IMG/VR virus record: IMGVR_UViG_3300012942_000057
Span: 1-52,774 of that record
Length of the DNA: 52,774 nt
Source of the DNA: a virus
Taxonomy: Duplodnaviria > Caudoviricetes
Strand: one strand, 5' to 3'
Part shown: piece after piece, positions 7,399 to 33,562 of the stretch
How the letters are laid out: each line of letters starts with the position of its first letter
Numbering within the stretch: position 1 is the stretch's first letter
Translations under genes and position numbers: made by a program
Notes under the pieces: model-generated
Seen by the model: the letters and a program-made list of their open reading frames with translations, nothing else
What the model was told of the DNA's origin: nothing
Databases searched by the model: none

Positions 7399-7411
7399 AA
7401 AATTTGGCATT

Positions 7412-7592: not shown

Positions 7593-7602
7593 TTACATGA
7601 AT

Positions 7603-7679: not shown

Positions 7680-7832
7680 ATTTTGAATTCGTACGTGACG
7701 ACGAGCGGGCTTCCATTACACCCAATCCTTTGTGGAGCGAAACGCGAACAGTCACGGGCGCCGCAGCGACTCCCTTCAAGTCCGCGGCGCCTTTACCCAT
7801 TCAAGCAGCAATCCACAAGGAGACCCAACCGC

Positions 7833-8507
7833 ATGGCCACGAAGAAGAAGGCGACTAATGCGCCTGCTTCCAAGAAGCCGGCGGCGAAGAAACCAGCCAA
7901 AAAAGACGGTGGGCCCACTCGCGCACAAAAGAAAGTCATCAACAAAGCTACCAAGGCATCCGCCGATGCAATGGTGCGTGATATTGTGGTGCAGCATAAA
8001 GAAGCCGGTCGAACCGAGGTGCCACCACTTCCAACTTACAGCGGCTGGACAAGTGAGTTGGAAGACGCCTTATACACCTTGATAGCCACTGGCAACGGCA
8101 TGCGAGAGATTTCTAAAATGCACGGCATGCCACCTTTGGTGCAAATGTTGAGGTGGCTCAGCGATGAGACACATCCGTTCTCGCTCACCTACGCACGCGG
8201 AAAACAGGCCGTGGTTTCACTGTACGAAGAAGACATTCAAGCAATCTCGCTTGCCGCTAACATCGGTGAGATCCGCACCGAGAAGCAGGTCCTCACCAAG
8301 GACGGCGACGTCGTCGACGTGGTGGAGACAAAGTACGTGGACAACGTCGAGCGCAGCAAGCTGGCCGTCGCCACGATGCAGTGGACGCTCGGCCACCTCA
8401 GGCCGCGCAAGCACGGACGCGTTCCCGACCTGTCGAGCGACAAGCCGAACGAGCAGCTCGAGGGCCTGTTCGCGGCGCTGAAGGCGGGGCCGGCCGATGG
8501 CAAGTAG
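7833..8507 (+). CDS. terS: terminase small subunit (Sf6-like)
   Basis: AAGGAG RBS; HTH (MREISKMHGMPPLVQMLRWL), FSLTYARG, DNVERSKL...QWTLGHLRPRKHG; lies upstream of terL. Confidence 0.85.
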   Translation: MATKKKATNAPASKKPAAKKPAKKDGGPTRAQKKVINKATKASADAMVRDIVVQHKEAGRTEVPPLPTYSGWTSELEDALYTLIATGNGMREISKMHGMPPLVQMLRWLSDETHPFSLTYARGKQAVVSLYEEDIQAISLAANIGEIRTEKQVLTKDGDVVDVVETKYVDNVERSKLAVATMQWTLGHLRPRKHGRVPDLSSDKPNEQLEGLFAALKAGPADGK

Positions 8508-8883
8508 CCTCCGTAGGCCCATTGGCCGCAAGGCCGTGCTGGCCAAGACGGGCGGCCGCTGCGCGTATTGCGGCGCCGTCCTCGGCCGCCTCTGGCACCG
8601 CGACCACGTCGTCCCGCTCGTCCGCTTCAAGGGCGTCAGGTGGTCGTTCGGCGGCCGCAACGGCTGCGTCAACCCGGAGGCCCACGACTTCGACAACATC
8701 GTCGCGGCGTGCGTCGCGTGCAACAAGTCAAAGGGGTCCATGGACCTGGAGACATGGCGCGGCAGCTTGCGGTGGCCGGGATGGCGGGGCGGCGGCGTCG
8801 TGTTCTATTTCGAGCGCCGAGCGGCCGTTTCCAAGCCCGTGGACCCGAAAGCCCCGCACGGGCGGTCTGGGGGCCGCGAATGA
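8497..8883 (+). CDS. HNH endonuclease
   Basis: GRCAYCG...DHVVP...NIVAACVACNKSKG. Confidence 0.9.
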   Translation: MASSLRRPIGRKAVLAKTGGRCAYCGAVLGRLWHRDHVVPLVRFKGVRWSFGGRNGCVNPEAHDFDNIVAACVACNKSKGSMDLETWRGSLRWPGWRGGGVVFYFERRAAVSKPVDPKAPHGRSGGRE

Positions 8884-10184
8884 GCGTTTTAGAGCGGCCC
8901 CAGTCCGCGGAAATGATAATGAAGCCGTTCGGGCGCAAAAGCCATGATTTCATCATGCGCGACCCGGCGCGGGACAAGCGCTACACCGTCATCGTCGGGT
9001 CCGTGCGCTCCGCCAAGACGTTCACCCTGGACGCCAAGACCATCGTGCAACTTTCCCGCTACCCGCTGCCGCCCAACGCGAAGCGGCTGATGACCGGGGC
9101 CACGAAGCAGACGCTCTACCGCAACGTGCTCATCGACCTGTTCAACGTCGTGGGCCAGTCGAACTACAGCTACAACGGCCAGACCGGCGAGCTTTGGCTG
9201 TTCGGCAAGCAATGGTTCTGCCTGGGCGCGAAGGACGAGGCGTCCTACCGGCAGATCCTCGGCATGACCGTCGGCCTGACCGTCGGCGACGAGGTCGTCG
9301 AGTACCCCAAGAGCTTCCTCGCCCAGAACTTCCTCCGCATGTCCCCCGCCGGGGCGCGGTGGTACGGGTCCACCAACACGGGCAACCCCTACTGCTACCT
9401 CAAGGCCGAGGTGATCGACAAGTTCGACCCTGCGTCGCTCGAGGTCATGAACTTCGGCCTGGCCGACAACCCCAACATCGACGAGGACGCCAAGCGCGCC
9501 ATCGTCGCCTCGCAGACCGGAGTGTACTACAAGCGGTACATCCTTGCGCAATGGGTGGTAGCCGAGGGCAGTATCTATCGCGATTCGTTCAGCGAGGCGG
9601 ACAACCTGTTCGACGGTATCGTGAAGGTGGACGGCGTAGATATACTGCTGGACCCGGAGCCGATTGGACTAAGGGCGCAGGGCGGTCATATTGATCACTG
9701 GTTCAGCGTGGACGCTGGCGTAGACCACGTGCAATCGCACCTCGAGTACTACGACGACGGCGACACGGTGTGGGTGACCCGCGAGCAGCGCTGGGATAGC
9801 CGCGCCGAGATGCGACAAAAGACAGACGGCCAATACGCCGACGACCTCGTAGCATTCGGAGCGGAGAAGCACCAAATCATTGTGCCACCCGAAGCGCTGT
9901 CTCTGAAGAATGAGTTCATCCAGCGTGGCTTCTGGGTTACGGACGCCGACAACTCCGTCAAAGAAGGCATCCACACGGTTTCCACCATGTTCGCCCGCCG
10001 CAAGCTGCGCATAAGCAAGCGCGGCTGCCCCGAGCTGGCCAAGCGCGTGCCCAACTACTCGTGGGACGACAAGGCCGCCAAGCGCGGAGTGGAGCAGCCG
10101 CTCAAGATCGAGGACGACGACTGCGACTCGCTGCGGTACGGGGTGCACAGCAAGCTGCCGCCGTGGCGGATTACTGGCGTATAG
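8880..10184 (+). CDS. terL: terminase large subunit (PBSX-like)
   Basis: Walker A variant GSVRSAKT, Walker B TVGDE, STN motif C, nuclease VDAG and DDCDSLRY. Confidence 0.92.
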   Translation: MSVLERPQSAEMIMKPFGRKSHDFIMRDPARDKRYTVIVGSVRSAKTFTLDAKTIVQLSRYPLPPNAKRLMTGATKQTLYRNVLIDLFNVVGQSNYSYNGQTGELWLFGKQWFCLGAKDEASYRQILGMTVGLTVGDEVVEYPKSFLAQNFLRMSPAGARWYGSTNTGNPYCYLKAEVIDKFDPASLEVMNFGLADNPNIDEDAKRAIVASQTGVYYKRYILAQWVVAEGSIYRDSFSEADNLFDGIVKVDGVDILLDPEPIGLRAQGGHIDHWFSVDAGVDHVQSHLEYYDDGDTVWVTREQRWDSRAEMRQKTDGQYADDLVAFGAEKHQIIVPPEALSLKNEFIQRGFWVTDADNSVKEGIHTVSTMFARRKLRISKRGCPELAKRVPNYSWDDKAAKRGVEQPLKIEDDDCDSLRYGVHSKLPPWRITGV

Positions 10185-15072: not shown

Positions 15073-15981
15073 ATGGCCGCGAAGAAACCGCCGGGCCCCA
15101 AGACCCCGCCAAAAAAGGGCGCCACGGAGTTTGGTCCCACGCAGCGCCTGCAGAAGGTGTACGAACGCGGCATCCGTGAAATAACGGGCCGCGTTTTATT
15201 GTCCTCAAAAAAGAAACCTGAGCAGTCATACACCGACTGGTTGGCCGATTTGGCCAGGCGTTCTCAAGAGAAGGACATCCAAGACGCCAGTGAGTTGCTG
15301 GCCAAGCGGATGATCTTCCAGACGCAGAAGACCAACTGGCGTACATGGCGCGAGGCCGCGTCGCGGTCCAGCCGCGCGCAGCACCTTTATCAGTTGTTAG
15401 AAGCTGAGATGCAAGGAGCCACGGGTGCGCGGGTCCGGCAGCTCGTGCGGGAGAACGCCAAACTCATCAGCTCGCTGCCGCTGGAGGCCGCGACAATGCT
15501 CACCGATGAGGTTCGCAAGGCGCAGCAATCCGGCGCCAGGCCGGGCACCGTGGCTAAGATGGCACAGAAGCGCTTCCCCACACTGCTTCGTTCCCGCACC
15601 CACCTCATCAGCCGGACGGAGACCGCGAAGGCAAGCACCGCGCTGACGCAGGCTCGGTGCGAACGGTTGAATGTGTCGTTTTACCAATGGGAGACGTCCA
15701 AGGACGGCGACCGCGTGCGCGAATCGCACCGCAACATGCATGGCGTTGTCGTGCCGTGGAGCCAGACCCCTGCCCCAGAGGCGCTCGTCGGGGAGAAGTC
15801 CACGCTCGGCCATTACAACGCTGGCGAGTGCCCGAATTGCCGCTGTCTCATCATCCCCATCCTGACGCTCGACGACATCCAATTCCCCGCGCGGGTCTAT
15901 TGGAACGGCGCGATCCAGCGTATGACGAAGCAAGCATTCAAACAAATCGCCGTCGGCCTGGAAGGGCGCGACGCCGCCTAG
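15073..15981 (+). CDS. head morphogenesis protein (MuF/SPP1 gp7 family)
   Basis: LISRTETAK, YQWETSKDGDRVRESH, GECPNCRC. Confidence 0.92.
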   Translation: MAAKKPPGPKTPPKKGATEFGPTQRLQKVYERGIREITGRVLLSSKKKPEQSYTDWLADLARRSQEKDIQDASELLAKRMIFQTQKTNWRTWREAASRSSRAQHLYQLLEAEMQGATGARVRQLVRENAKLISSLPLEAATMLTDEVRKAQQSGARPGTVAKMAQKRFPTLLRSRTHLISRTETAKASTALTQARCERLNVSFYQWETSKDGDRVRESHRNMHGVVVPWSQTPAPEALVGEKSTLGHYNAGECPNCRCLIIPILTLDDIQFPARVYWNGAIQRMTKQAFKQIAVGLEGRDAA

Positions 15982-16860: not shown

Positions 16861-19302
16861 ATGCCGAAACCACGCAAGCGCAAAAACGCCAACGCCTTCG
16901 AGCAGCTCCTGGGCGTCCACGGCACCACCAGCGCGTTCGCCCAGGACGTGTTCACCAACGCCGCGGCGCGCACTGGCTATGGCACGCCATCGCTGGGGCA
17001 GGGCAGTGAGTACAGCCTCGTACGCTTGAGCTTCGATTATTGGCAGCTCATCACGCTGTTCCGCAACCACTGGATCAGCCGCCGCATCGTGGAGGTGCCG
17101 GCGCAGGACATGGTCAAGGCGTGGCCCAAGATGACCAGCGACGTGGAGCCCAAGGACCTCACGCGCATCGATCGCGCCCTGCGCAAGACCAATACCAAGA
17201 ACAACGTGCTCACCGGCCTGACATGGGGGCGCCTGTTCGGCGGCGCCGGCGGCCTCATCGTCATCGACGGCCAGGAGAACGAGCTCGACCAGCCGCTGGA
17301 CCTCGACTCCATCAAGATAGGCGCATACAAGGGAATCATCGCGTTCGACCGCTGGGCCGGGATCTCGCCTTCCGGAGACGTGTGCACGGACATCAACCGC
17401 CCGCTCGACTTCAACAAGCCAGAGATGTACGACTGCCGTGTCGCAGGAGGCGCGTCGTTCCAGGTCCACTCGTCTAGGCTGCTTCGGTTCCTCGGGCCGA
17501 CCGTACCCACTCCCGAAGTGGAGGCCCAGTCCTACTGGGGCATCTCGGTGCTGGAGCCGACGTACGAGTCCATCACGCGGCTCGACAACATGTACTTCAA
17601 CCTGCTCAACCTGTCGTTCCGCGCCAACCTCATCGGAATGAAGTTCCCCGAGCTGGCGCAGCTGCTCTCCGGACTGGGTTCGTCGCAGATGGCGACGCAG
17701 AAGTTCGAGCAGCGCATGTCATCGCTCAACCACCTCATGTCCAACCAGTCGCTCATCCCGCTGCCGGCGGACGGCTCCATCGAGCAGACGCAGTACAGCT
17801 TCGGCGGCATGAGCGACGTGCTGCAGCTCTTCCAGCTCGACCTGTCCGGCGCGGCGCAGATACCCATCACCCGCTTGTTCGGCCGCACGTACAATGGGCT
17901 TGGACAGGCGGGCGACGGCGACGAGCGCATCTACGAGGAGAAGATCTCCACCGACCAGTCGACCTACCTGTTGCCGCAGCTCGAGAAGCTCTACCCGGTG
18001 GTCTGTATGAGCGAGCTGGGCGAGGTGCCGGACGACCTCGACCTCGCCTGCCCCTCCATCCGCGTGCTGTCGGAGCAAGAGAAGTCGGACCTGGCCAAGA
18101 GCGTCGCCGACACCACCACCGTGTACCTCAACGGCGGCATCATGTCGCCGCGCAGGGTTGCCATGGAGGTCAAGCGTAATAGCGACGTTACAGGCATCGG
18201 CGCCACATTGGACGACGAGTACATACAAAAGCTCAGCGACGACGTCCAATCCGAGGGGGAGCTCGGCGAGGGCCTGTTCGGCGGGGAGGGCGGCGGTCTC
18301 AACGAGGCGTCGTCGCCGGCCAAGGCCATCAAGGGGGAGAACGAGAAGGAGAAGGAGAAGCAGGACGAGCCGGGCAAGGAAGACCCCAAGAAGGGCCTGG
18401 CCGAGAAGGCCGGCAAGGCCCAGGACGCCGCCCCGGCCATGGACGCGCTGCCGTCCGGGCTCGCCGTGGGGGAGTCGGTGCTCGTCGGGGGCCGGATGCT
18501 CGCCGTGAGGGCCATCGGGCCCGCCGTGGAGGACCTGGATGGCCGGGAGGCCGTTCCGGTGAGCTTCGACGACGGCTCCGTGGTGGCGTACGCGCCAGAC
18601 CGCAATAGGGCGGGCGATTCCTACACCGTGCGCGACTCGCTGAAGAGCCTTCTGCGCCGGCATATGACCGGCAAGGAGGGCAAGTCCAAGCGTGAGTTCT
18701 TCGACGAATGCGTTGAGTTCCTCTCCACCAGTGTCGCGAAAAGCAGCGCGGCGTATGCGGAGGTGGAACGCATGGACTCAGCCCTAACTCTCGGCCGGTT
18801 GTGCGAAAACGTGCGCACCGAGCTGAAGAAGGGACGTGCCACCGACGAGGACGGCGCCTCCAGCGTCACCCGCCGCGCCGCGGAGCTCATGGAGTACCAT
18901 GCGCTGCCGGTTCGGATCGAGAGCAGGCAGGGCGACGTCCGCGCCGGGACCACGCCGGACGGCCGGTCGTGGCGGACCGTCATGCCAGCCGATTACGGCT
19001 TCATTGACATGGGAATCAACGGCAGCGACGGAGATTCAATCGACTGCTATGTCGGCACGTCGCCGGAATCGAACAACGTCTACGTCGTCGACCAGTATGA
19101 CCTGGACGGCAAGCAGTTCGACGAGCACAAGGTGATGCTTGGCTATCATACGCGGGAGACCGCGGTGGAGGACTACATGCTGGGCCACCACCTGTCCGAC
19201 AAGACGTTCGCCGCCGTCACCCCGTTCACGATGCCGGTGTTCAGGAAGTGGCTGAGGACGCACGACATGACCCTGCCGTGCGACGCGGAAGTGGGCCGCT
19301 GA
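16861..19302 (+). CDS. portal protein (DUF1073-type) fused to a C-terminal inorganic-pyrophosphatase-like domain
   Basis: WISRRIVEVPAQDM, WGRLFGG, VHSSRLLRF, WGISVL, IPITRLFG; C-terminal DYGFI...DGDSIDCYVG...DEHKVMLGY. Confidence 0.9.
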   Translation: MPKPRKRKNANAFEQLLGVHGTTSAFAQDVFTNAAARTGYGTPSLGQGSEYSLVRLSFDYWQLITLFRNHWISRRIVEVPAQDMVKAWPKMTSDVEPKDLTRIDRALRKTNTKNNVLTGLTWGRLFGGAGGLIVIDGQENELDQPLDLDSIKIGAYKGIIAFDRWAGISPSGDVCTDINRPLDFNKPEMYDCRVAGGASFQVHSSRLLRFLGPTVPTPEVEAQSYWGISVLEPTYESITRLDNMYFNLLNLSFRANLIGMKFPELAQLLSGLGSSQMATQKFEQRMSSLNHLMSNQSLIPLPADGSIEQTQYSFGGMSDVLQLFQLDLSGAAQIPITRLFGRTYNGLGQAGDGDERIYEEKISTDQSTYLLPQLEKLYPVVCMSELGEVPDDLDLACPSIRVLSEQEKSDLAKSVADTTTVYLNGGIMSPRRVAMEVKRNSDVTGIGATLDDEYIQKLSDDVQSEGELGEGLFGGEGGGLNEASSPAKAIKGENEKEKEKQDEPGKEDPKKGLAEKAGKAQDAAPAMDALPSGLAVGESVLVGGRMLAVRAIGPAVEDLDGREAVPVSFDDGSVVAYAPDRNRAGDSYTVRDSLKSLLRRHMTGKEGKSKREFFDECVEFLSTSVAKSSAAYAEVERMDSALTLGRLCENVRTELKKGRATDEDGASSVTRRAAELMEYHALPVRIESRQGDVRAGTTPDGRSWRTVMPADYGFIDMGINGSDGDSIDCYVGTSPESNNVYVVDQYDLDGKQFDEHKVMLGYHTRETAVEDYMLGHHLSDKTFAAVTPFTMPVFRKWLRTHDMTLPCDAEVGR

Positions 19303-19551: not shown

Positions 19552-19737
19552 ATGGAGCGATTCAGCATGCAAGAGCGCGCGCGGCTGTTCGAGCATTACA
19601 TGAGCATGGATCCGACGCAGGCCGCCGACCGTCGCTTTATGGAGGGAAGGTGCATGAGCATGGCCCAGAACCTGTTCGTGGAGGCGCAGCACCTTGAGCT
19701 GCTGAGCGCGCGCCTGCGGGAGGGCGAGCGTGGCTAA
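19552..19737 (+). CDS. hypothetical protein
   Basis: ORF coupled to the next gene. Confidence 0.55.
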   Translation: MERFSMQERARLFEHYMSMDPTQAADRRFMEGRCMSMAQNLFVEAQHLELLSARLREGERG

Positions 19738-20029
19738 ACTATGCGAATACGTCAACGAAGGCGAACGAAGGTTGTTCGTGTTCCATTGCCCTGGCTGCGG
19801 TTACGACCATCCGTTCCACGTCGGTTACACGGAGAGGCCCTCTTGGTCCTGGAACGGCGACATGGACAAGCCCACGTTCAGTCCTTCTCTTTTGGTTTTC
19901 AAGGACGTGCCTGCGCGGCGCTGCCACTCGTTCGTCGCCGACGGCAGTATTCAATTTCTTTCCGATTGCTTTCATGAACTGAAGAATCAAACTGTGGAGA
20001 TACCGGAATGGGACGATCCTACCTGGTGA
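19730..20029 (+). CDS. DUF6527-like Cys/His metal-binding protein
   Basis: CPGCG..H, WSWNG..KPTFSPSL, CHSFV.DG.IQFLSDC.H. Confidence 0.7.
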   Translation: MAKLCEYVNEGERRLFVFHCPGCGYDHPFHVGYTERPSWSWNGDMDKPTFSPSLLVFKDVPARRCHSFVADGSIQFLSDCFHELKNQTVEIPEWDDPTW

Positions 20030-20132: not shown

Positions 20133-21170
20133 GTGAAGCGCGTGGTGCAGACCCGCACCGGCGACGACGGCAACTGCCTCAACGCGTGCATCGCGTCAAT
20201 CCTGGAACTGCCGTTGAAGGCGGTGCCGGAGTTCGGAGAGGATTGGCAGGGGGACCTGAACGACTTCCTGGCGACCAAGGGACTGCGCTACCGCCGCGTC
20301 CCCATGCACTCGAGGCCGTCCGGCTGGAGCACCATAGAGGGCGTATCGCCGCGCGGAGGACTGCACGCGTGCGTGGCTCTGGACGGCGAGCTGGCGTGGG
20401 ACCCGCATCCAATCGAGGACGGCACTGGTCAAGGTTTGGTCGAGCCGCGCTATTACGGGTTGCTGGAGCCGTTGAGCGGCAGGGCGGGGGATGCCAATCA
20501 ACCTTTGGCAGAAGTCCGCGGAATCATACGTGGTTGGTCATTCGCAGACGCTACCGGCGTGCAAAGAAGGCTTACAAAGGCCGAAGATTTTGTGCGCATA
20601 GCAGATCTATCTACGCGGCAAAAGAAGGCTGTAGAAGATCTACTACGCCCACTGCGATCTGCCCTGGAAGAAATGGAAGCCGACGGGCAGTTTCCGAAGA
20701 AAGCCACCGACCGCGCCGACATGCGGCAGCTTCGTGCCAAGACTGAGCAGCAGGGCGGCCCGTTCTTCATGCAAGAGACCACCAAGTCCGGCGCGGAGCG
20801 CACCATTCCGGTGCGAGAGCTGGCCAAGGGCGCCGACGCATACGACGGCCCTCTGATTGATACAAAAGCCGGGCGGCGCAACTTCTTAATGCCTCTGGCC
20901 AAAGGCGCGGATTCCAAAACTTCGGAGGTCGTCTTGCTGCTGCTGGCCATCTACGCGTGGTACAAGAGCCGGGAGAAACCGCCGCTACCCACGTACGACC
21001 TGGCCAAGTACGCGCCCAAGAAGCGCGCGCTCGACGCGCCCATCGACCGCTGGCGCATGTCCGACATACTGGACGCGCTCGGCATCGACATCAAGGAATA
21101 CATGCGCCGCACCGAGCCGCAAAAGAAAGCGCTGCTGAAAACTGCGCTGGAGAAACTCAGTTCGAAGTGA
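20133..21170 (+). CDS. modular protein: N-terminal C39/papain-like peptidase-like domain plus small modules
   Basis: Q...GNCLNACIAS, HACV, WDP; then RAGD/KATD/KGAD/KGAD/RALD-delimited segments. Confidence 0.7.
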   Translation: MKRVVQTRTGDDGNCLNACIASILELPLKAVPEFGEDWQGDLNDFLATKGLRYRRVPMHSRPSGWSTIEGVSPRGGLHACVALDGELAWDPHPIEDGTGQGLVEPRYYGLLEPLSGRAGDANQPLAEVRGIIRGWSFADATGVQRRLTKAEDFVRIADLSTRQKKAVEDLLRPLRSALEEMEADGQFPKKATDRADMRQLRAKTEQQGGPFFMQETTKSGAERTIPVRELAKGADAYDGPLIDTKAGRRNFLMPLAKGADSKTSEVVLLLLAIYAWYKSREKPPLPTYDLAKYAPKKRALDAPIDRWRMSDILDALGIDIKEYMRRTEPQKKALLKTALEKLSSK

Positions 21171-21231: not shown

Positions 21232-21369
21232 ATGACAATCTCGTTCATCTTCCTCGTACTGGCCTTCCTCTGCTTCATCGCCGCGGCCGTGAACCCGCCG
21301 TGGCCGCGCGTCAACCTCATCGGGCTTGGGCTGGCGTTCTGGGTGCTTACGCTGCTCATCCACGCATGA
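21232..21369 (+). CDS. 45-aa two-TM protein, probable holin
   Basis: Not in the ORF track; AAGGAG RBS; MTISFIFLVLAFLCFIAAAVNPPWPRVNLIGLGLAFWVLTLLIHA; overlaps the endolysin start. Confidence 0.65.
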   Translation: MTISFIFLVLAFLCFIAAAVNPPWPRVNLIGLGLAFWVLTLLIHA

Positions 21370-21854
21370 CAGCGTTGCAGAAATTCCTAGCACTCATCGC
21401 ATGGTCGGAAGGAACAGCCACCAGCCCTATAACAGCCAACGATGGCTACGACGTCATCGTCAGCGGGCTGGGCGGCCCAGAAGTGTTCACCGACTACGCC
21501 GACCATCCGTTTGCCAATCGGACGCCGAAGCTCGTGCGGGCCGAACCGCCGCTGTATTCCACCGCCTCTGGCCGGTACCAGCTGCTCTACCGCTACTGGC
21601 ATGTCTACAAGGCGCAGCTGCACCTGTCGGACTTCTCGCCCGCATCGCAAGACGCCGTCGCTCTGCAGCAGATGAAGGAACGCGGTGCCGTGGATATGGT
21701 TTCTGTAGGCAATATTGCCAACGCTATTCATGCGTGCTCCAACATCTGGGCCAGCTTCCCCGGCAACGACTACGGACAGAACGCCCACCCGCTAGAGAAG
21801 TTGCTGGCGCGGTGGGAAGCGATCGACACAACACCGACGCAATTAGAAGCATGA
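21366..21854 (+). CDS. endolysin, lambda R-like lytic transglycosylase
   Basis: FLALIAWSEGT, GYDVIV, DHP, STASGRYQLL, DFSPASQD, IWASFPG. Confidence 0.93.
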   Translation: MTALQKFLALIAWSEGTATSPITANDGYDVIVSGLGGPEVFTDYADHPFANRTPKLVRAEPPLYSTASGRYQLLYRYWHVYKAQLHLSDFSPASQDAVALQQMKERGAVDMVSVGNIANAIHACSNIWASFPGNDYGQNAHPLEKLLARWEAIDTTPTQLEA

Positions 21855-21908: not shown

Positions 21909-22220
21909 ATGGCATCAGGATCATTCGCAGTAACGGCGGCGCAGGGCACCAGTTTTGGATTCGCATCCACCAACGTGGCAATCCCGGGCGGTGGCACCAC
22001 CGGGGTGCTTCGCGTGGCGAACCTCGGGCCATGCCACATCACCGTGAAGCTAGGCGACGGCACCACCACGGTTTCGCAGGCGACCGGGCTGACCATCCTG
22101 GCCGGGCAGACGGAGTGGCTCACCATCGGCGCCGCCACCAACATCGCCGGAGTCGCGGCGGGCGGCCCGGGCAACTCATCCACCGTCAACCTGGCGGCGG
22201 GAACACTTACAGCAGCTTAA
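21909..22220 (+). CDS. small beta-rich structural protein
   Basis: AAGGAG RBS; G/A/T-rich, LRVANLG. Confidence 0.7.
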   Translation: MASGSFAVTAAQGTSFGFASTNVAIPGGGTTGVLRVANLGPCHITVKLGDGTTTVSQATGLTILAGQTEWLTIGAATNIAGVAAGGPGNSSTVNLAAGTLTAA

Positions 22221-22261: not shown

Positions 22262-24145
22262 ATGCCGCTCGAACCGGGCAAGAGTCAGAACGTCATATCG
22301 CGCAACATCGCAGTCGAGCGGCACCACGGCAAGCCCGAGAAGCAGGCCATCGCCATCGCGGAGTCCAACGCGCGGAGGACGGGCGACACTGGCAATCTAG
22401 ACGCCCAGCTCGCTAAGGCAAAACGCAATTTAGCTCTGGCCGAGACTCATAAAGAAGAAGCCAAGTATAGGTCCGAAGTCGATGAGCTGCTGCACGCTAT
22501 GCGAAGCGCAAAGAAAACAGCAACAGACGACCTCGCGCCGGTCGGAGCCGAGGACCCGGAGCGCGCCGTCGCGCTGAAGAGGCACGAGGAAGGCCTCACC
22601 AAGTCGCAGGACAGGCGCAATGCGCGGGACGGCGTCAAGTGCCAGTGCGAATCCTCCGTCGGATGCGGCCACGGCGGCGGGCCGTGCGGCAACACCGCCA
22701 CGCGGGACGTGCCGACCATCTATGGCGGCTACAAGATGTGCCGGACCTGCGCCGAGGCGCTTCCGGCCGAGTACAAGAAGGGAAGCGACATGAAGCGTGC
22801 GCGCGACATACAGGGCAGCGAGATCCGCGAGAAGCTGGGAATCTCCGAGGCGGAGTGGGCGAAGCTGGACAAGTCGGCCCGGCAGGACAAGGCGCGTGAG
22901 GCGCTCCGGCGGGGCAAGGACGAGGTCATGCCGGTGGGGGACCTTGAACCGCGCGAGGAGCTCAGACAACTTAAAGAGGACCTAAAAAAGCGCGGGCACC
23001 TGACCAGTTACGAATCGCAGCGCAAGCGCGAATTGGAGGCGCAATTGAAGCGCTCCAAAGACGAACTCCCCACCGCCATAAAGACCAGCAACCTCGTGCC
23101 CATGCCGTCGGGCGAGCACAACGAGGTGAGCTACGCGCCGCGCCGCATCGCCGCGCGCGACCGTGGGCGCTTCAAGAAGGTGGGGGACTCCAAGGAGTTG
23201 CGCGAGCATATCGAGCGGTTGAAGAAGGAACCGCAATCTGCGATGCGCGATCGCCTCATCAAAACGGCCGAATTGGCGGTAAAGAAAGGCATTCCAAGAG
23301 ATGAGGCCGCGAGAGAGATTGCAAGGGCCACCGACGCCATAGCCAATCTGCCGCTGCAGACGTCCGGCTCCGAACCCGCCGACCACATGCAGCGCGCCAA
23401 CGAGTACGAGGTCGCGGGCGATCGCGCTCGTGCGCTGGACAGCTACCGCGCTGCTGCATCTGGCTACCGCAAGGCTAACGACCGAGCCAACGAGGCCAAG
23501 GCGCGCGATGGCGTCGAGGCTTGCCAGGCCAAGTTCTCCACTCAGTACCAGCACCCCGGCGCGGGCCGCGTCAAGGTGTGCGACTCCGCGGAGCAGGCCA
23601 TGCGCACCGCCGTCGAGCGCACAAGGGCTGGAGAATCTGTGTGCGTAGTCGGCAAGACGGTGAGGCCGGAAAGAAGTAGGGTGGGGGACAAGCTGGTGCA
23701 GTGTGCCGGGTGTGGCACGGTATTCACTACCAATGGCAAGGACATGCAGCGACACCTTGACAAGCATCCTAAGTGCGCAGCGCTGTACAAGAATGGCAAA
23801 GCTAAGGACGAACACGAAGGCTTCAAGAAGCTGGAAGGCAAGCTCAGCCACGAGAAGGGCGTCACCAACCCCGCCGCGCTGGCCGCGTCCATCGGGCGCA
23901 AGAAGTACGGCGCGGAGGGCATGGCGAAGAAGTCCGCCTCCGCGAGGGACGACGGCCCCGATGAGGAGGCCGAAGCGCGCCTCGACGCCTATACGAAATT
24001 TAGGCATTCGCTCAACCGAATGAAGCCCAGTCCAGCCGAGCAAAGCAAATTGGACGCGCTTTGGAGGGCGTACAAAGAGGTCAAAGCGCGCGTCAATCGG
24101 TTCGCGGTCCGCGCGCGCGACGGCAAGGAGGTCCGACCCGTATGA
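22262..24145 (+). CDS. mosaic polyprotein-like protein, putative processed internal head protein
   Basis: Starts with the small-phage-protein-like MPLEPGKSQNVISRNI...QAIAIA; two Zn-finger modules; FKKL...ALAASIGRKKYG module; many xxD junctions. Confidence 0.75.
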   Translation: MPLEPGKSQNVISRNIAVERHHGKPEKQAIAIAESNARRTGDTGNLDAQLAKAKRNLALAETHKEEAKYRSEVDELLHAMRSAKKTATDDLAPVGAEDPERAVALKRHEEGLTKSQDRRNARDGVKCQCESSVGCGHGGGPCGNTATRDVPTIYGGYKMCRTCAEALPAEYKKGSDMKRARDIQGSEIREKLGISEAEWAKLDKSARQDKAREALRRGKDEVMPVGDLEPREELRQLKEDLKKRGHLTSYESQRKRELEAQLKRSKDELPTAIKTSNLVPMPSGEHNEVSYAPRRIAARDRGRFKKVGDSKELREHIERLKKEPQSAMRDRLIKTAELAVKKGIPRDEAAREIARATDAIANLPLQTSGSEPADHMQRANEYEVAGDRARALDSYRAAASGYRKANDRANEAKARDGVEACQAKFSTQYQHPGAGRVKVCDSAEQAMRTAVERTRAGESVCVVGKTVRPERSRVGDKLVQCAGCGTVFTTNGKDMQRHLDKHPKCAALYKNGKAKDEHEGFKKLEGKLSHEKGVTNPAALAASIGRKKYGAEGMAKKSASARDDGPDEEAEARLDAYTKFRHSLNRMKPSPAEQSKLDALWRAYKEVKARVNRFAVRARDGKEVRPV

Positions 24146-25872
24146 CAGAGGAGGAACTGGAAATAATTCCGGCGACGCGGAGCCCGCACGGCTACCTGGC
24201 CAGCCAGCTGAGCGACAACATCTTCGAGAAGGACGACGGCACGCTCATCGTCGTGGGCTGCCCCATCGCCCGCACCGGCTGGCAGAAGTACGCCGTCAAG
24301 GACCTTCCGCAGGCGCGCGCCGACGCGCTGGGCGTGGACGTCTCCAACCCGGAGGCGTCCATCGACCTCTACCGGCCGGCCAAGGAGGTGTTCCACCCGG
24401 AGTTCCTCGCGTCGCTCAACGGGTGCACCATCACCGACGGACACCCGCCCGGCGGTGAGTTTGTTGATCCTAAGAACTTCAACAAGTACTCCCAAGGGCA
24501 TATCCAGAACGTGCGCAAGGGCACGGAGCCCATGGAGGACGGCGAGTGGCCCATCATCGCCGACCTGGTCATCAGCGCGGAACCGCTCATCGGCAAGGTG
24601 CGCAGCAAGGCGGCGCGGGAGATCAGCCTTGGTTACGACTTCAGCATCGACCGCGACGGCGACAAGATCATCCAGTGCTCCATGCTGGGCAACCACAACG
24701 CGGTGGTGCCAAAGGGCCGCGCCGGCCCGTCGGTCCGTATCGAGGACGCCATGCCAGAAGATCTGCAGGCATCTATCGCCTTGCCACCAAGTTTACCAAC
24801 AGAAGTCCAACCTGCGCCGTCGGCGGAAGTCATCGAAGCCATCGCGTATCCACCCATCATAGTGTCAATAACCAACAAGGAGAAGCGACCCGTGGCTCAA
24901 AAGAAAAACTGGCTTCGTTCTTTGATGGGAAAGCATCTTATCGAAATGGCGAGAGCCGCGGATGCTGACCCTGAGAAGATCATGGATGCGGCGGAGGAGA
25001 TGCACGCCGACGACGACGCGGAACCGCCGAAGAATACCGGCGCAAACGAGTTCAAATCAGAGGACAAGAAGAAGGGCAAAGACGGCGAGCTTCCGGAGGC
25101 GCTGAAAGAGCACGAGTTCAAGTCTGAGGACAAACGAGGCAAAGATCGCAGGTCCAAGGACGAGGATCCTGACGAAGACGAGGTGGAAGTGAGCGCAGAC
25201 CGCAAGAAGGCGCACGACGCGCTGGATCGCATCATGGACAAGCGCAAGGCCAAGGACGCCAAGGCCAAGGACGCCAACATCGACGCGCTGAAGACGCTCC
25301 TCGACGAGTTCCTCTCCGAGGAGGAGAAGGAGCCCGAGCATTCCGAAGACGAGGCCGCCGATCCCTCCGAACTGGAGGCCGTCCTGGCCGGCGAGGCGGA
25401 GGACGCGGAGGAGTGCCCTGAGTGCGGCGAAGTCGGCGAAGACTGCGCGTGCGCCGACGCCGAAGAAGAGGAAGTCGAGAGCGGCGAGGAAGTCCTGGAC
25501 GCGGAAGAGGGCGAAAGTCCCGATCCCGATTCGGACGATGACCAAGAAGACGTGGAGGACAAGCGCAAGGGCAAGGATCGCGCCCGCGCCGCCGACGCCG
25601 CCACCGCCGTGTTGCGCATGATCCGCCCGTTCGCCGCGCGCTCCAACGACAAGGCGTTCCAGGCCACGTTCAACCGCGCCCTGGACTCTGTCAAGAAGAC
25701 CAGCCGAGTGTCCAACGGCGGCTACGGCAAGTTTGCTTCCTCGGCGCGCGCCCGCGACAAGGCTCCGCGTAACCCCAACCCAGACCGTGCTCGTGCTGGT
25801 GACGGAGCCGGCAAGGATCCCATCAGCAAGATGCAGGAGTTCTACAACACTGCCCATAAAGGAGGCAAATAA
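24142..25872 (+). CDS. prohead protease (DUF2213-type) with C-terminal acidic scaffold
   Basis: CPIARTG.Q.Y, RPAKEVF, TITDGHP, EISLGY, NHNAVVPKGRAG; acidic tail; directly upstream of the capsid genes. Confidence 0.9.
   Translation: MTEEELEIIPATRSPHGYLASQLSDNIFEKDDGTLIVVGCPIARTGWQKYAVKDLPQARADALGVDVSNPEASIDLYRPAKEVFHPEFLASLNGCTITDGHPPGGEFVDPKNFNKYSQGHIQNVRKGTEPMEDGEWPIIADLVISAEPLIGKVRSKAAREISLGYDFSIDRDGDKIIQCSMLGNHNAVVPKGRAGPSVRIEDAMPEDLQASIALPPSLPTEVQPAPSAEVIEAIAYPPIIVSITNKEKRPVAQKKNWLRSLMGKHLIEMARAADADPEKIMDAAEEMHADDDAEPPKNTGANEFKSEDKKKGKDGELPEALKEHEFKSEDKRGKDRRSKDEDPDEDEVEVSADRKKAHDALDRIMDKRKAKDAKAKDANIDALKTLLDEFLSEEEKEPEHSEDEAADPSELEAVLAGEAEDAEECPECGEVGEDCACADAEEEEVESGEEVLDAEEGESPDPDSDDDQEDVEDKRKGKDRARAADAATAVLRMIRPFAARSNDKAFQATFNRALDSVKKTSRVSNGGYGKFASSARARDKAPRNPNPDRARAGDGAGKDPISKMQEFYNTAHKGGK
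24892..25872 (+). CDS. probable nested in-frame scaffolding protein
   Basis: AAGGAG at 24877 followed by an in-frame GTG at 24892, after the protease domain. Confidence 0.55.
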   Translation: MAQKKNWLRSLMGKHLIEMARAADADPEKIMDAAEEMHADDDAEPPKNTGANEFKSEDKKKGKDGELPEALKEHEFKSEDKRGKDRRSKDEDPDEDEVEVSADRKKAHDALDRIMDKRKAKDAKAKDANIDALKTLLDEFLSEEEKEPEHSEDEAADPSELEAVLAGEAEDAEECPECGEVGEDCACADAEEEEVESGEEVLDAEEGESPDPDSDDDQEDVEDKRKGKDRARAADAATAVLRMIRPFAARSNDKAFQATFNRALDSVKKTSRVSNGGYGKFASSARARDKAPRNPNPDRARAGDGAGKDPISKMQEFYNTAHKGGK

Positions 25873-26675
25873 TGCCACAGTACAGTTTCGGCCAAGTCAT
25901 CGGTGTGACCGGGCCGGGTAATGGCTTCCAGGGCACGGTCAGCCGGTTCGGTGAACGTGTCATCATGGCGCGCGAGTTTATTCCATACAACGCCGTCAAC
26001 AACCTCTATTTCGGCGACCCCACGCTCATCCTGCCCGGAGTCGGCAGCGGTGGCGGGGCGGTCACGTCCGTGGCCGACGCGGTGGCCGCCTCGGCAGCCA
26101 ACATCGCCCTCATCGCGTCGGCGTTCGCCGGTATGGCCGTGCGCGAGGTCAAGACGCAGCTCTCCTACCCGGCGGGTCAGGCTCCTGGCATTCAGTTGGT
26201 CGGTTACTACGCCAACCAGCAGATGGCCGAGGTATTGGAGCGCGGCAACGGCACCATCCTGCTTTCCGTCGGCGCTCCGCTGGCCGAGGATCAGGTGTAC
26301 ACCCGCGTAGTGGCCAACACGGCCGTTCCCGCCGGACTTGTCGGCGACTGGGAGACCAACCCCGCCGCCACCGACCTGTTCAGTACCACGGCCACCGCGG
26401 CTGCCATTGGCACCGCCGTCACCGTGGCATCGGCGACCAATACCAAGAACGGCCAGGTCGTCACCGGCTTCGGTATCGCACCTGGAACATACGTCGCTTC
26501 CGGCGGCGGCACCACCGCCATCGTCCTCAACAAGGCGACCAACGCCATCATCCCGGCTGGCACGCCCATCACCTTCAGCAACCTCGTGGCGCTGCCCAAC
26601 GTTGTCGCGCGTACCGGCAACCTGGACAGCAACAACATCCTCGAAATCACCATCAAGGTCCGTAACGCGGCCTAA
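25872..26675 (+). CDS. capsid decoration/cement protein
   Basis: GFQGTVSR, FAGMAVREVK, EVLERG; lies between the scaffold and capsid genes. Confidence 0.8.
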   Translation: MPQYSFGQVIGVTGPGNGFQGTVSRFGERVIMAREFIPYNAVNNLYFGDPTLILPGVGSGGGAVTSVADAVAASAANIALIASAFAGMAVREVKTQLSYPAGQAPGIQLVGYYANQQMAEVLERGNGTILLSVGAPLAEDQVYTRVVANTAVPAGLVGDWETNPAATDLFSTTATAAAIGTAVTVASATNTKNGQVVTGFGIAPGTYVASGGGTTAIVLNKATNAIIPAGTPITFSNLVALPNVVARTGNLDSNNILEITIKVRNAA

Positions 26676-26689: not shown

Positions 26690-27736
26690 ATGAAGCGTAC
26701 TATTCCAAATCGCGTGCGGGCGTTCGACGCTGCGGGCGCTACTGGTTTTGCATTCCTCCAGAGCCAGCTGGAACTCATCGATACGGACCTTGTTCGTCCG
26801 TTGCAGGCTGTCACGCACAAACGCGACATCGCTGTCGAGGTAGGCGGAGGCTTCCCCGAGTTCATCTCGGCGTTCGCTTCTAACTACGGCTCTACCGGCA
26901 CCCAGTTCTACGGGCTGCAAGGTACAAACAACACGGAAATCCCCGAAGCACAGGCCGACATCCAGAAGGGCATCTGGCGCACGTACAACTGGGCGATGGG
27001 AATGACCATCACCTGGATCGACCTGCGCCGCATGGAGACCGCCCTGCGCACCGGGCAGGCGCCCCCGTTCAGCTTGCAAGAGCTGTACGAGGAGTCGGTC
27101 GAGACCACATGGGGCAAGGCGCTTGACTTCGTCGTTTACGCCGGTTTCCTCGGCGATCCCGGCCTCATCAACAACCCGAATATCTTTGAGTCGGTCGCCG
27201 CGGCCGGCGCGGCCGGATCCACCACATGGGCGAAGAAGACCCCGCAGGAAATTCTTGCGGACGTCAACTTCGCGCTCAACCAGACGGTGGAGAACTCCGG
27301 CTACTCGGCCGAGGAGGGCATGGCGGACCGCATGCTCATCCCGTACACCCAGTTCGCCTACCTCACCCAGCCCATCGCAATCGGCGGCGCCCCGGTGGCG
27401 GTGAGCACGATCAAGTACATCGAGGAGAACTGCGTCGCGGCCCACCACGGCATCGACTTCAAGATCAACTTCCTCCCCAACCCGTGGATCAGCGGCACGG
27501 GCAGCGGCAACACGCTGCCTCCCGGCTCGGCCAACGGCGGCAACGGGCTCGACCGCGCGTTCTTCTACAAGAACTCAAAGAAGAGCGTGTACTTGAAGAT
27601 CCCGCAGCCGATGATCCAGGCGCTCAGCGTCCCGACGACCCGTTCCGGCGGTGCATATGAGACGATGTTCGCTGGATGTGTCAGCCAGGTCATCTATAAG
27701 CGGACAACCACGGCGTACTACTTAGACGGAGTGTAA
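26690..27736 (+). CDS. major capsid protein (DUF2184-type)
   Basis: FDAAG.GFAFLQSQLELID, GLINNP, WAKKTPQEILADVN; AAGGAG RBS. Confidence 0.9.
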   Translation: MKRTIPNRVRAFDAAGATGFAFLQSQLELIDTDLVRPLQAVTHKRDIAVEVGGGFPEFISAFASNYGSTGTQFYGLQGTNNTEIPEAQADIQKGIWRTYNWAMGMTITWIDLRRMETALRTGQAPPFSLQELYEESVETTWGKALDFVVYAGFLGDPGLINNPNIFESVAAAGAAGSTTWAKKTPQEILADVNFALNQTVENSGYSAEEGMADRMLIPYTQFAYLTQPIAIGGAPVAVSTIKYIEENCVAAHHGIDFKINFLPNPWISGTGSGNTLPPGSANGGNGLDRAFFYKNSKKSVYLKIPQPMIQALSVPTTRSGGAYETMFAGCVSQVIYKRTTTAYYLDGV

Positions 27737-27782: not shown

Positions 27783-28307
27783 ATGGGAAAATCATCCTCT
27801 ACGGCAGTCGAACTGAGGCGCCTGCGTGGCGTCCTTAGATACCAGCCTCGAACAGGTAAGTTTATCTGGATCGTAAGGCGAAGCGCCACAGTACCAAAAG
27901 GCATGGTGGCTGGCACGGTAAAGAAAAGCGGTCATATACAACTCATGGTTTTTGGCAAGATGTACTATGCGCATCGCCTTGCCTGGTTGTTTATGAAGGG
28001 TGAATGGCCGCCTGATGGTCTTGACATTGACCATGAGGACGGTGTGCGTGCCAACAATAAGTGGAAGAACCTCCGTCTGGCCACGAATGGTCAGAACAAC
28101 TGGAACACCCGCAAGTTGTACAAAAGCAATACTAGCGGCAAGCGCGGCGTTTCTTGGGAGACGTTTCGACAGGCATGGATAGCGCGTGTCACCGTCGACG
28201 GTCATCAAATAAACCTCGGCGTATTTCCGAAGAATAAGTTGAAGGACGCCATCGCCGCGCGCAAAGCCGGCGAGCTGAAGTACTTCGGCGAGTACGCGCC
28301 AAAATAG
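27783..28307 (+). CDS. HNH homing endonuclease with AP2-like domain
   Basis: YYAHRLAW, IDHEDG..NN...NLR, NTSGKRGVSW, INLG.F; lower GC than its neighbours. Confidence 0.92.
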   Translation: MGKSSSTAVELRRLRGVLRYQPRTGKFIWIVRRSATVPKGMVAGTVKKSGHIQLMVFGKMYYAHRLAWLFMKGEWPPDGLDIDHEDGVRANNKWKNLRLATNGQNNWNTRKLYKSNTSGKRGVSWETFRQAWIARVTVDGHQINLGVFPKNKLKDAIAARKAGELKYFGEYAPK

Positions 28308-32161: not shown

Positions 32162-33562
32162 ATGGCGCAAACACCGCCTCTTTCGCTTTCCAATATCGTA
32201 GACATCACGGTGCAGGTGTCGCCCGCGTCGCCTACCACCAATTCTTTCAACGTTGGCTTGTTCATCGGACCCAGTCCGGTCATCCCGTCCTACGGCGCTG
32301 ATTCGCGCGTACGGCTCTACACAAGCACATCGGCCATGCTCACCGACGGTTTCACGGTCGATGACCCGGAATACCTGGCCGCGCAGATATACTTCTCGCA
32401 GACGCCTCCGGCATTCCAGGTCGCGATCGGGTGCCAGGATTTGACGGCGCTACAGACGATCACGATCGACACCGCCGGAACTGACTGGGCCGTGGGCGAC
32501 CAATTCAACGTGGTACAAGGCAGCGCCAACTATGGCATCGGCGTGGTGCTGGCCGAGACTGCCGGAGTACCGACGTCCATTGGAGTGCTTACCGGCAATC
32601 AGGGCACTGGTTACAGCATAGCCACCGGACTGGCCACGACTGCCGTCAGTCCCTCCACTGGCACCGGTCTGACTGTGGACGTAACGGCCATAGGGGAGAC
32701 GCTGTTGCAGGCAGCCACTGCATGCCGCGCAGCCAGCGGCGACTGGTATGGGCTCACGGTTAACGCTCCGGTAGACGCGGACAATCTGGCCATTTCCGAA
32801 TGGGCCGACCCGCTTTGGGAGAGCACGCGCTACTACCCGTACTTCAACGACGCGTCAATCCCCGCCGGAACAGCCAACAATGTGGCGTTGCAACTGCAGG
32901 CCATGAAACTGCGCGTACTCGGACAGTACGCTACGACGCAGAACGACCTTTATCCCAACAACGTCTATGCGGCGGTCGCATTGATGGGCGTGGAGATGGG
33001 TCTGAACACTGGGCTGGCTGGCAGCTTCTTCACGGTGGCGCACAAAACCTTGGCTGGGATTGCGCCAGAGCCGCTTACGCAGACGCAGTACACCAATTTG
33101 AAGACCGCTGGCGTGAACGTGTACGGGACATTCCAATCGTACCAATTGGAAGAGCCGGGGTTCATGTCCGACGGCTCGCCTTCCTACTTGTGGCTAAATC
33201 TGGCACGCTACGTGGCTCTGCTACAGAGCGAGACTTTGGCCGTGTTGCAAGACAATCCCGCTGTGCAGCAAAACAACGCCGGGGAGCAGCTGCTGTTGCA
33301 CGGCGCTAACAACGCCGGAACCACGATGGCGAACATCGGATTTTTGTCCGGCGGAGTTTGGAACGGCGCGTCCATTAACATCACTGGCCTGTCTATCACG
33401 AACGGACAGGCGATTCCTTCTGGGTTTTTGAACATGGCGCAGCCATACACGCAACAGTCGCCTTCCGACAGGGCGGCGGGCAAGGCGATGCCCATCTACT
33501 CGTTCATCACCACGGCTGGCGCGGTTCAGTCTCTCGTAATCGGAGTTTACACCCAGCTGTAA
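32162..33562 (+). CDS. tail sheath protein (DUF3383-type)
   Basis: LSNIVDITV, RVRLY, PEYLAAQIYFSQTP, C-terminal AGAVQS.VIGV. Confidence 0.9.
   Translation: MAQTPPLSLSNIVDITVQVSPASPTTNSFNVGLFIGPSPVIPSYGADSRVRLYTSTSAMLTDGFTVDDPEYLAAQIYFSQTPPAFQVAIGCQDLTALQTITIDTAGTDWAVGDQFNVVQGSANYGIGVVLAETAGVPTSIGVLTGNQGTGYSIATGLATTAVSPSTGTGLTVDVTAIGETLLQAATACRAASGDWYGLTVNAPVDADNLAISEWADPLWESTRYYPYFNDASIPAGTANNVALQLQAMKLRVLGQYATTQNDLYPNNVYAAVALMGVEMGLNTGLAGSFFTVAHKTLAGIAPEPLTQTQYTNLKTAGVNVYGTFQSYQLEEPGFMSDGSPSYLWLNLARYVALLQSETLAVLQDNPAVQQNNAGEQLLLHGANNAGTTMANIGFLSGGVWNGASINITGLSITNGQAIPSGFLNMAQPYTQQSPSDRAAGKAMPIYSFITTAGAVQSLVIGVYTQL

Follow-up and report, generated by a model that had tools for sequence, protein, structure and literature searches.

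A mosaic polyprotein with module borders at aspartate, encoded beside a DUF2213 prohead protease: a probable capsid-interior substrate in an uncultured contractile-tailed phage

What does a protein of 628 amino acids (aa), put together from short, unrelated segments, do among the head genes of a tailed phage? The question is raised by an open reading frame (ORF) on the plus strand of IMG/VR virus record IMGVR_UViG_3300012942_000057, of which we analysed positions 1 to 52,774 (the window), a 52.8-kb contig of a contractile-tailed phage. The ORF (22262-24145, with a GTG at 22259, an ATG at 22262 and the stop at 24143-24145) is real, has a GC content at third codon positions (GC3) of 0.80 and encodes a net-basic protein (K+R 127 versus D+E 97) whose 628 aa are numbered from the GTG. 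The initial annotation, made from the letters alone, described it as a chain of small modules separated by a recurring [KR]-small-x-D motif, packaged into the prohead and cut after Asp into small effectors, and pointed to the DUF2213 protease gene directly downstream (24142-25872, plus strand), which the polyprotein gene indeed adjoins through a start/stop overlap, ATGA, at 24142-24145. From the comparisons set out below we consider it probable that the ORF encodes a capsid-interior polyprotein that is cut after Asp by the DUF2213 prohead protease and whose units are packaged.

There are 15 copies of the motif, written as [KR][GASTVC]xD, in the polyprotein, whereas composition-preserving shuffles lead one to expect 2.95 +/- 1.63 and 0 of 1000 of them reach 15; its frequency is thus beyond what composition predicts. 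Control motifs in the same protein are flat (5 versus 4.46 for the E-ending form and 4 versus 2.94 for the reversed form). Among the neighbouring gene products the same test gives 15 copies versus 2.75 expected in the DUF2213 protein and 7 versus 1.39 in ORF345 (0 of 1000 shuffles in both cases), and no significant excess in the portal protein (4 versus 2.65), the lysozyme-like ORF, ORF267 or the capsid protein. At least 64 polyprotein-like metagenomic homologues exist, and the 64 used for all the mosaic analyses below hold 705 copies of the motif, which account for 26% of all their Asp residues. When 2457 unique Asp contexts are averaged, P4 is K/R in 34% (versus 18%), P3 is Ala in 27%, P2 favours Lys and the prime side is nearly uninformative. 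A second class of junction is formed by a cassette of the type x-x-x-P-V-G-D, the 64 proteins having 51 instances of P[VI]GD.

These homologues belong to a much larger assemblage. A word-indexed search recovered 54 relatives, 371-1049 aa long and with a query coverage of 6-100%, and an exhaustive profile-free search recovered 432 proteins at E <= 1e-3, many of them small and matching one module only. In all-versus-all BLAST comparisons of the 64 proteins the right ends of the alignments peak on the motif Asp (163 at distance 0), with 639 of 2340 unique right ends falling within +/-3 residues of one, as against 314 +/- 17 under the null; the left ends peak 4-5 residues before the Asp, that is, alignments begin at the K/R. 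No excess of BLAST ends was seen at the control site sets (KxxE, other Asp, any Glu). Iterative profile searches made for each module separately likewise revealed that the homologues shuffle their modules at the Asp motifs, as the initial annotation had anticipated, rather than with borders that ignore them: for 179 of 189 internal N-terminal module borders, which lie outside the module definitions, the seven residues that immediately precede the border include an Asp (40% expected), and the 10-mers that precede module starts are mostly unlike one another. The shuffling takes place against a stable background. In every IMG/VR locus long enough to judge, the genes follow the order portal with its inorganic pyrophosphatase-like (InPase) domain, an ORF345-like gene, in some cases ORF103, polyprotein, DUF2213 protein, ORF267 and major capsid protein (MCP), and across these loci the MCPs are 77-93% identical and the module content of the polyproteins differs. 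A profile of one module, the core module F, leads to 24 IMG/VR loci.

We placed the module borders by the per-module profile searches in combination with the breaks in an AlphaFold model. Of the 15 junctions named at the outset, 14 prove to be module borders, namely D43, 90, 124, 177, 183, 221, 268, 301, 310, 359, 477, 517, 564 and 621; the remaining one, KVCD442, lies inside the conserved, confidently folded 118-aa core module F, and two further junctions, SQD118 and PVGD228, had been overlooked. The core holds five internal motif copies in all, none of them a junction, the others being D388, 394, 408 and 417, which are conserved within the fold.

The chain that results, all of it on the plus strand, opens with module A (aa 2-43, ending RTGD43; 22262-22387; 28/64 homologues; GC3 0.91), a homologue of small phage proteins. 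Next come a helical hairpin, module X (aa 44-90, ending TATD90; 22388-22528; 3/64; GC3 0.49), module B (aa 91-118, starting DLAPVG and ending SQD118; 22529-22612; 47/64; GC3 0.93), a six-residue linker peptide ending NARD124 (22613-22630) and the Cys-rich, Zn-ribbon-like module C (aa 125-177, ending KGSD177; 22631-22789; 4/64; GC3 0.91), which also exists as a standalone 93-aa protein (P0098). A linker ending RARD183 leads into module D (aa 184-221, ending RGKD221; 22790-22921 including the linker; 11/64; GC3 0.91), and a seven-residue junction cassette of the xxxPVGD type (aa 222-228; 22922-22942) into a second helical hairpin, module Y (aa 229-268, ending RSKD268; 22943-23062; GC3 0.68), found only here (1/64). 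Module E (aa 269-301, ending AARD301; 47/64; GC3 0.94), which is predicted to be disordered, is followed by a 9-residue peptide ending KVGD310 (23063-23188 together), by the three-helix module Z (aa 311-359, ending RATD359; 23189-23335; 4/64; GC3 0.67) and by the core module F (aa 360-477, ending RVGD477; 23336-23689; 57/64; GC3 0.80), made of helical hairpins and a small beta unit. The C-terminal part holds module G, a C2H2-like Zn finger (aa 478-517, ending KAKD517; 23690-23809; 3/64; GC3 0.68), module H (aa 518-564, ending SARD564; 23810-23950; 39/64; GC3 0.94), known from many small standalone proteins, the helical module I (aa 565-621, ending RARD621; 23951-24121; 2/64; GC3 0.74) and finally the heptapeptide GKEVRPV with the stop codon (24122-24145). 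From these distributions B, E and F, often joined by A and H, would make up a conserved backbone into which accessory modules appear to have been inserted, or exchanged, exactly at Asp sites.

Several features read by eye in the first place can be followed into this scheme. The two Cys/His Zn-finger-like patterns are indeed present (aa 125-177 and 478-517), although the only Pfam match, zf-C2H2_4 at E 0.068, stays below the cut-off; the TPR-like block has weak counterparts at best (Foldseek E >= 0.2, PDB profile E 0.42). Both segments that had been likened to standalone phage proteins are borne out: residues 2-41 correspond to phrog_2423 (E 6.4e-13), a profile that 14 of 33 homologues also match, and to gp20 of phage PB1 with 50% identity over 38 aa, and counterparts of residues ~515-563 are found in numerous proteins 58-200 aa long. 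Small proteins made up of A and H only are frequent. Module H there stops with the protein itself, at the point that corresponds to ...RAKD in the polyprotein; of 14 viral loci found to encode such a protein, 6 lie in DUF2213/PF09950 head modules. One viral contig (locus L044, 6001-6864) encodes a DUF2213 protease domain that carries module A as an in-frame N-terminal fusion.

The two termini of the chain are also conserved. The homologues begin with MPL... or with a short basic leader that ends in R-A-x-D, and 37 of the 64 end in ...PV (of the ...EVxPV type), 4-7 residues past the last motif Asp. In the window the codons of the heptapeptide contain the Shine-Dalgarno sequence of the protease gene, AAGGAGGT (24125-24132, plus strand), and a Shine-Dalgarno sequence with an ATGA overlap is found within the tail codons of other high-GC loci too. 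Conservation of the tail is therefore at least partly a constraint of translation initiation, since its codons are at once the protease gene's AAGGAGGT and the ATGA overlap. The idea that ...KEVxPV is purely a targeting peptide is weakened by this overlap with the ribosome-binding site; it is kept alive by lower-GC relatives, which retain ...LPLPVKVTK without the overlap. A slippery sequence that might fuse polyprotein and protease by frameshift or readthrough was not seen when the overlap was inspected by eye.

The predicted structure and the codon composition respect the same borders. An AlphaFold2 model built on a 33-sequence alignment has a mean predicted local distance difference test (pLDDT) of 72 and a predicted template-modelling score (pTM) of 0.27, indicating confident local units without a fixed mutual arrangement, like beads on a string. 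The segments with pLDDT < 50 are residues 1-6, 92-96, 116-128, 133-137, 175-181, 223-227, 269-285, 287-311, 361-364, 473-477, 514-523 and 621-628. By manual count from the model, 14 of the 16 junction Asp residues lie within three residues of such a segment, versus ~30% by chance, and the other two, D43 and D564, are situated at helix breaks; none of the five motif Asp residues internal to the core is near one (0/5). In codon usage the AT-richer stretch noticed early on is real and module-exact, being module X (nt 22388-22528), whose GC3 of 0.49 stands between neighbours of 0.91 and 0.93, and more generally GC3 steps coincide with module borders. The pattern fits a recent import of the rare accessory modules from lower-GC relatives, which exist in the clade. 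GC heterogeneity alone was rejected as evidence because the scatter of GC3 (standard deviation) in the polyprotein gene, 0.133, is no greater than in TerL (0.166) or the MCP gene (0.133); only the coincidence of steps with borders counts.

Which enzyme might cut at these sites? The DUF2213 neighbour is identified by Pfam DUF2213 (PF09979; E 1.8e-32; 113.1 bits, the cut-off being 22; aa 30-202) and matches PHROG families annotated 'head maturation protease'. Its architecture combines a gp21-like protease (aa 1 to ~210) with an acidic, scaffold-like tail. The AlphaFold model of the N-terminal domain (pTM 0.76) has T4 gp21 as its sole Foldseek match at E <= 1e-3 (E 6.8e-4), and when aligned to gp21 (5jbl_B) by VIA-align it gives a Z-score of 13.3 with a root-mean-square deviation of 3.3 A over 143 residues, the human cytomegalovirus protease coming next with Z 5.3; the domain is thus predicted to have the gp21/assemblin prohead protease fold. 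H101, H120, S162 and H185 are invariant in 35 DUF2213 sequences and occur in the order expected of a His-Ser-His triad. All 15 motif copies of this protein are beyond aa 270. Among 120 orthologues, the scaffold-like tail has 1173 copies where 254 are expected (4.6x), the form of the motif ending in E is depleted (46 versus 275), other last residues never exceed 1.6x and the protease domain has about one site; in 13 distinct loci the first 210 residues of the DUF2213 protein carry 0-2 copies and the full-length protein 8-17, almost all of which belong to the scaffold-like tail. Several of the tail sites are conserved in position.

Candidate sites of the same kind are found in other head proteins. 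The MCP (PF09950; 26690-27736) has, by analogy with those of phages TLS and KPP12, a predicted 13-residue leader ending RAFD13 (26690-26728, plus strand). Such leaders vary among the related loci, with 9-18 residues of differing sequence before the site, and converge on R/Q-x-F-D followed by an invariant N-arm. ORF345 (20133-21170, plus strand) consists of an N-terminal phrog_5845 domain and a tail with the seven motif copies; between two KGAD sites the tail holds a 21-residue mini-module (aa 236-256) which recurs, flanked by Asp, in another polyprotein (P0010). From these occurrences one cleavage consensus would be common to the polyprotein, the scaffold-like tail, ORF345 and the MCP leader. 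In the portal protein, the linker from the body to the InPase domain (18424-18846, plus strand) contains KAQD522, RAGD586 and RATD662. The InPase domain itself spans aa 677-798 of the portal protein, and D522, D586 and D662 could free it together with two intermediate units of ~65-75 aa inside the head. A separate observation concerns the N-terminal part of ORF345 (aa 1-118; 20133-20480), in which a conserved Gln6...Cys14...His78 is reminiscent of papain/C39-like thiol peptidases, so that it could be a second head-associated peptidase.

Experimental anchors come from cultured phages with DUF2213 proteins. In the head module of PB1, which has a Phage_portal_3 + InPase portal and a MuF protein, gp22 is the DUF2213 protein (E 5.5e-29). 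Edman sequencing of the mature MCP (ORF23) of the PB1-like phage KPP12 gave an N-terminus beginning SNFTAP (PMC3474789), which is residue 65 of the PB1 capsid protein, directly after AMD64. In Pa193 the MCP is modelled from residue 66, the first 93 residues of the portal are unseen and undetected by liquid chromatography-mass spectrometry, and of gp24 only residues 286-326 are seen, according to the structural report (PMC11456595); this gp24, deposited as 'scaffolding protein' (9b40_G), was returned by our PDB sequence search at E 1.3e-4. TLS has a DUF2213 protein, gp33 (E 4.4e-23), and a PF09950 MCP (E 1e-52), whose mature form has the Edman N-terminus ASDMGIW (PMC11447400), that is, residue 33 of the RefSeq ORF, after KND32. 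In an alignment of MCP N-termini the Asp residues of the KPP12/PB1 type and of TLS fall within a few columns of D13 of the window. Repeats of x-T-G-D are present in the DUF2213 scaffold tails of SEN34 (locus L026, 4361-5593; ~8 TGD), BgManors32 (L027, 3393-4847; 5 TGD) and EKP1 (L029, 3492-4760). These comparisons suggest that Asp at P1 recurs across the DUF2213 family, and P1 is the only position that would transfer from the experimental anchors. Side by side with them stand two observations on single phages: A-M-D-S is common to portal D76, gp22 D400 and capsid D64 of PB1 (L031; coordinates 1112-3421, 5172-6569 and 7218-8366), which suggests a cleavage consensus of the PB1 clade, and the capsid protein of BgManors32 has an N-terminal extension of ~40 residues ending R-T-Q-D.

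PB1 also supplies a link to the polyprotein itself. Its gp20, of 68 aa, is encoded between the MuF and DUF2213 genes, and the stretch that resembles module A continues into KAKD47. Homologues of gp20 in KPP22 and Ab28 are annotated 'virion protein', a label given by the depositors. When the whole polyprotein was compared with a phage database by tblastn, only the N-terminal 40 aa were matched, in 3 records.

Put together, these lines make the Asp-ending motifs very probably the cut sites of the adjacent protease. The ORF would be translated as one chain that enters the prohead with scaffold and protease; there the DUF2213 protease, whose start appears translationally coupled to the polyprotein gene, would cut it after Asp, mostly at [KR]-small-x-D and, as the second class, at P-V-G-D. 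Cuts at the 16 junction Asp residues would yield ~12 units of 28-118 aa and five peptides of 6-9 aa. The same enzyme would remove the 13-residue MCP leader, break up its own scaffold-like tail and also cleave within the portal-InPase linker and the ORF345 tail; the folded, net-basic units would be retained in the head and depart together with the DNA. The phage head is thus likely to be loaded with a variable assortment of mini-proteins. Of the initial proposal, the processing sites and DUF2213 as the likely enzyme find backing by comparison, through the protease fold, the enrichment in its tail, the MCP leader and the KPP12 and TLS termini; packaging of the units is plausible by analogy, given the 'virion protein' label on the 68-aa module A homologues of KPP22 and Ab28.

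Several points weigh against this interpretation. The source is an uncultured contig, for which cleavage, packaging, retention and ejection are steps that we infer, and a profile search for the core module in species-representative genomes found it absent. The invariant His/Ser/His residues are a putative catalytic triad, and their equivalence to the residues of gp21 is presumed. No capsid-targeting signal was identified in the chain. Asp is found on the C-terminal side of 214 of 228 module borders, a count that is partly circular because the module definitions end in Asp. A count free of the motif, in which 15% of right ends have Asp as their final aligned position versus a background of 7%, is noisy, the signal being modest because BLAST ends are blurred. 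Of the viral loci encoding the A+H small proteins, 8 of 14 are without DUF2213/PF09950 head genes within 6 kb. The residues at P4-P2 differ by clade, being AMD in PB1, KND in TLS, TGD in SEN34-like phages and [KR]-small-x-D here. Lastly, the available parts of the KPP12 (PMC3474789) and TLS (PMC11447400) reports neither ascribe the capsid cut to the DUF2213 protein nor remark on the Asp.

What the units do once cut is the point at which the strongest alternative arises. Pfam, NCBIfam and PHROGs searches with the query, its small standalone relatives and 33 homologues returned no family of known function; at E <= 0.01 Pfam had no match in the query and only scattered single weak matches in the 33 homologues, none of them an LPD or a peptidase. 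Module A shows a sub-threshold similarity to DUF6496 (E 0.008), PDB sequence searches yielded nothing significant for the polyprotein or the core module, and in a fold search the full-length model had nothing at E <= 1e-3 and no more than weak TPR-like hits. The suggestion that the modules are effectors, possibly with anti-defence roles, is thus unsupported. The presence of B, E and F in 47-57 of the 64 homologues suggests that part of the chain, instead of being a free collection of effectors, has a conserved function in assembly or structure. One might accordingly regard the chain as an auxiliary scaffold or core protein, which enters the prohead and is cut at Asp into assembly factors that are degraded and expelled rather than delivered. 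In keeping with this, its motif density equals that of the protease's scaffold-like tail (15 copies each), B, E and F are near-universal (47, 47 and 57 of 64), the disordered module E is like a binding peptide and no module belongs to a known effector family. We nonetheless think it unlikely: most units are predicted to be folded, with pLDDT of 80-96 in many blocks; units of 28-118 aa would presumably be large for escape via the capsid pores; the rapid turnover and differing GC3 of the accessory modules are unusual for scaffolds; and annotations of the PB1-type module A protein label it a virion protein.

A different doubt concerns whether the chain is cut at all. In an uncleaved multidomain internal or head protein, K/R-A-x-D would mark flexible linkers or helix caps, with the Asp kept for structure; helices do end at D90, D222, D268, D563 and D621 in the model, where the Asp could be a C-cap, and cleavage in this phage is a prediction. 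Yet the same motif is enriched in the scaffold-like tail, with strong depletion of E, and follows the MCP leader, the mature capsid proteins of two DUF2213 phages begin right after Asp, and the standalone module H ends at its own C-terminus where the polyprotein has its Asp site, all of which makes this alternative very improbable. Least probable of all is a cut after Asp by another enzyme, such as the ORF345 N-terminal domain (with its Gln...Cys...His, possibly papain/C39-like, conserved in the same head modules and touched by a weak lead of an Atlas search, in which 11% of the rank-30 cluster's members carry Peptidase_C39, with a score of 0.93), the MuF-like protein (common to this phage, PB1 and TLS) or a host protease, since no ORF345 homologue was seen annotated in the head regions of PB1 or TLS, both of which show the Asp cut, C39 peptidases cut after Gly-Gly, and it is DUF2213 that has the gp21 protease fold and the motif in its own tail.

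Returning to the proposed packaged polyprotein, the near universality of its modules B, E and F suggests that they help in assembly or anchoring, and the rare, compositionally foreign modules look like exchangeable cargo. A bolder extension, which we put forward only tentatively as a possibility, is that the chain serves as a cargo rack: any mini-protein gene placed between two Asp sites would automatically have its product taken into the head, freed by the prohead protease and injected before genes are expressed, so that the clade could trade early effectors (e.g., for counter-defence) as cassettes, and Asp at P1 might then be a general predictive 'packaging code' for the DUF2213 family, including the therapeutic Pbunaviruses.

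Prohead-protease processing of packaged proteins is in itself classical. In phage T4 a protease of the gp21 fold trims the capsid protein, the scaffold and packaged internal proteins (IPI-III, Alt) at one short consensus, cutting after Glu, and the internal proteins are kept inside the head and reach the host along with the DNA. The locus described here resembles the T4 prohead core in the predicted fold of its protease and in a predicted consensus common to capsid, scaffold and internal proteins; it differs in having a predicted P1 Asp in place of Glu, and in that every T4 cargo protein has its own gene, an N-terminal targeting peptide and a single cut, whereas here about a dozen mini-units share one ORF with ~16 predicted cuts and are shuffled between phages. 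In phiKZ and SPN3US the cleavage motif also ends in Glu, the protease is of another lineage, and the substrates are large dedicated proteins rather than chains of unrelated swappable mini-modules. In those phages the prohead protease cuts many head-internal proteins at a common motif, some of them at several sites (PMC5694885, PMC10052503, PMC7411985). Another parallel is offered by the polyvalent proteins (Iyer et al. 2017, PMC5512222), in which unrelated domains are united in one polypeptide delivered with the DNA and for which release by proteolysis was proposed. The InPase domain of this phage's portal belongs to their repertoire. Polyvalent proteins are, however, large and enzyme-rich, with an embedded zincin-like peptidase, whereas here the units measure 28-118 aa and the cuts at Asp are predicted to be made by a separate protein, the prohead protease; no LPD, MPTase or enzyme domain was found by Pfam in the polyprotein or its 33 homologues.

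The heads of the Pbunaviruses (PB1, KPP12, KPP22, Pa193) are similar in gene content, with the same Phage_portal_3 + InPase portal and DUF2213 protease-scaffold in a module that runs portal-InPase, MuF, the 68-aa gp20, the DUF2213 protein gp22, decoration protein and MCP. Shared, too, are a module A homologue just upstream of DUF2213, followed by KAKD, and a mature MCP that begins, here by prediction, after Asp. The differences are that PB1 has a single small module A protein in place of the 628-aa chain, a site of the form A-M-D|S instead of [KR]-small-x-D, and MuF after the portal rather than before it. With the polyproteins that eukaryotic RNA viruses make the likeness is that a viral protease divides one translation product, at short sites that recur along it, into separate functional units; there is no homology, and the present case is that of a tailed double-stranded DNA phage, with predicted cutting inside the procapsid into mini-proteins. 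Judging by titles and abstracts, we found no paper on the specificity of DUF2213 or on such chains of mini-proteins. What our analysis contributes is a large family of mosaic proteins bordered exactly at Asp, the steps in GC3, the link to PB1 gp20 and KPP12 as a second experimental anchor.

In the rest of the window, TerL (8568-10184) and the MuF-like protein (15073-15981) are encoded upstream of the head module, and the tail sheath (32162-33562) downstream, along with baseplate proteins. The head module starts with the portal gene (16861-19302), ORF345 coming second; in third place, between ORF345 and ORF103 (21909-22220, fourth), is the lysozyme-like ORF (21300-21854), which matches phrog_17029 (E 3e-56) and phrog_90 'endolysin' (E 5e-49), has no Asp motif and was not found at the same position in the related loci examined. 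ORF267 (25872-26675) is located between the DUF2213 and MCP genes. A Cys-rich ORF of ~99 aa (CxxC ... C-H; 19730-20029) between portal and ORF345 resembles by eye an ORF of 97 aa located upstream of the DUF2213 gene in Burkholderia phage BgManors32 (L027, 2404-2697) and may be a conserved small protein of the head module. Directly after the capsid gene, a 174-aa ORF (27783-28307) looks by eye like an HNH/AP2-type homing endonuclease.

If the Asp rule is true, it would provide DUF2213 with its first cleavage specificity of practical use; this prohead-protease family, although very common and present in T1-like coliphages, in Pbunaviruses used for therapy and in many temperate phages, has hardly been studied. 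Head-loaded proteins and their mature forms would then be predictable from sequence alone, and the rule could be tested on cultured relatives such as PB1-like phages and TLS. It would also mean that tailed double-stranded DNA phages have a polyprotein strategy akin to that of RNA viruses, and the exchange of modules at cut sites would make these chains a natural scaffold for packaging foreign mini-proteins into capsids.

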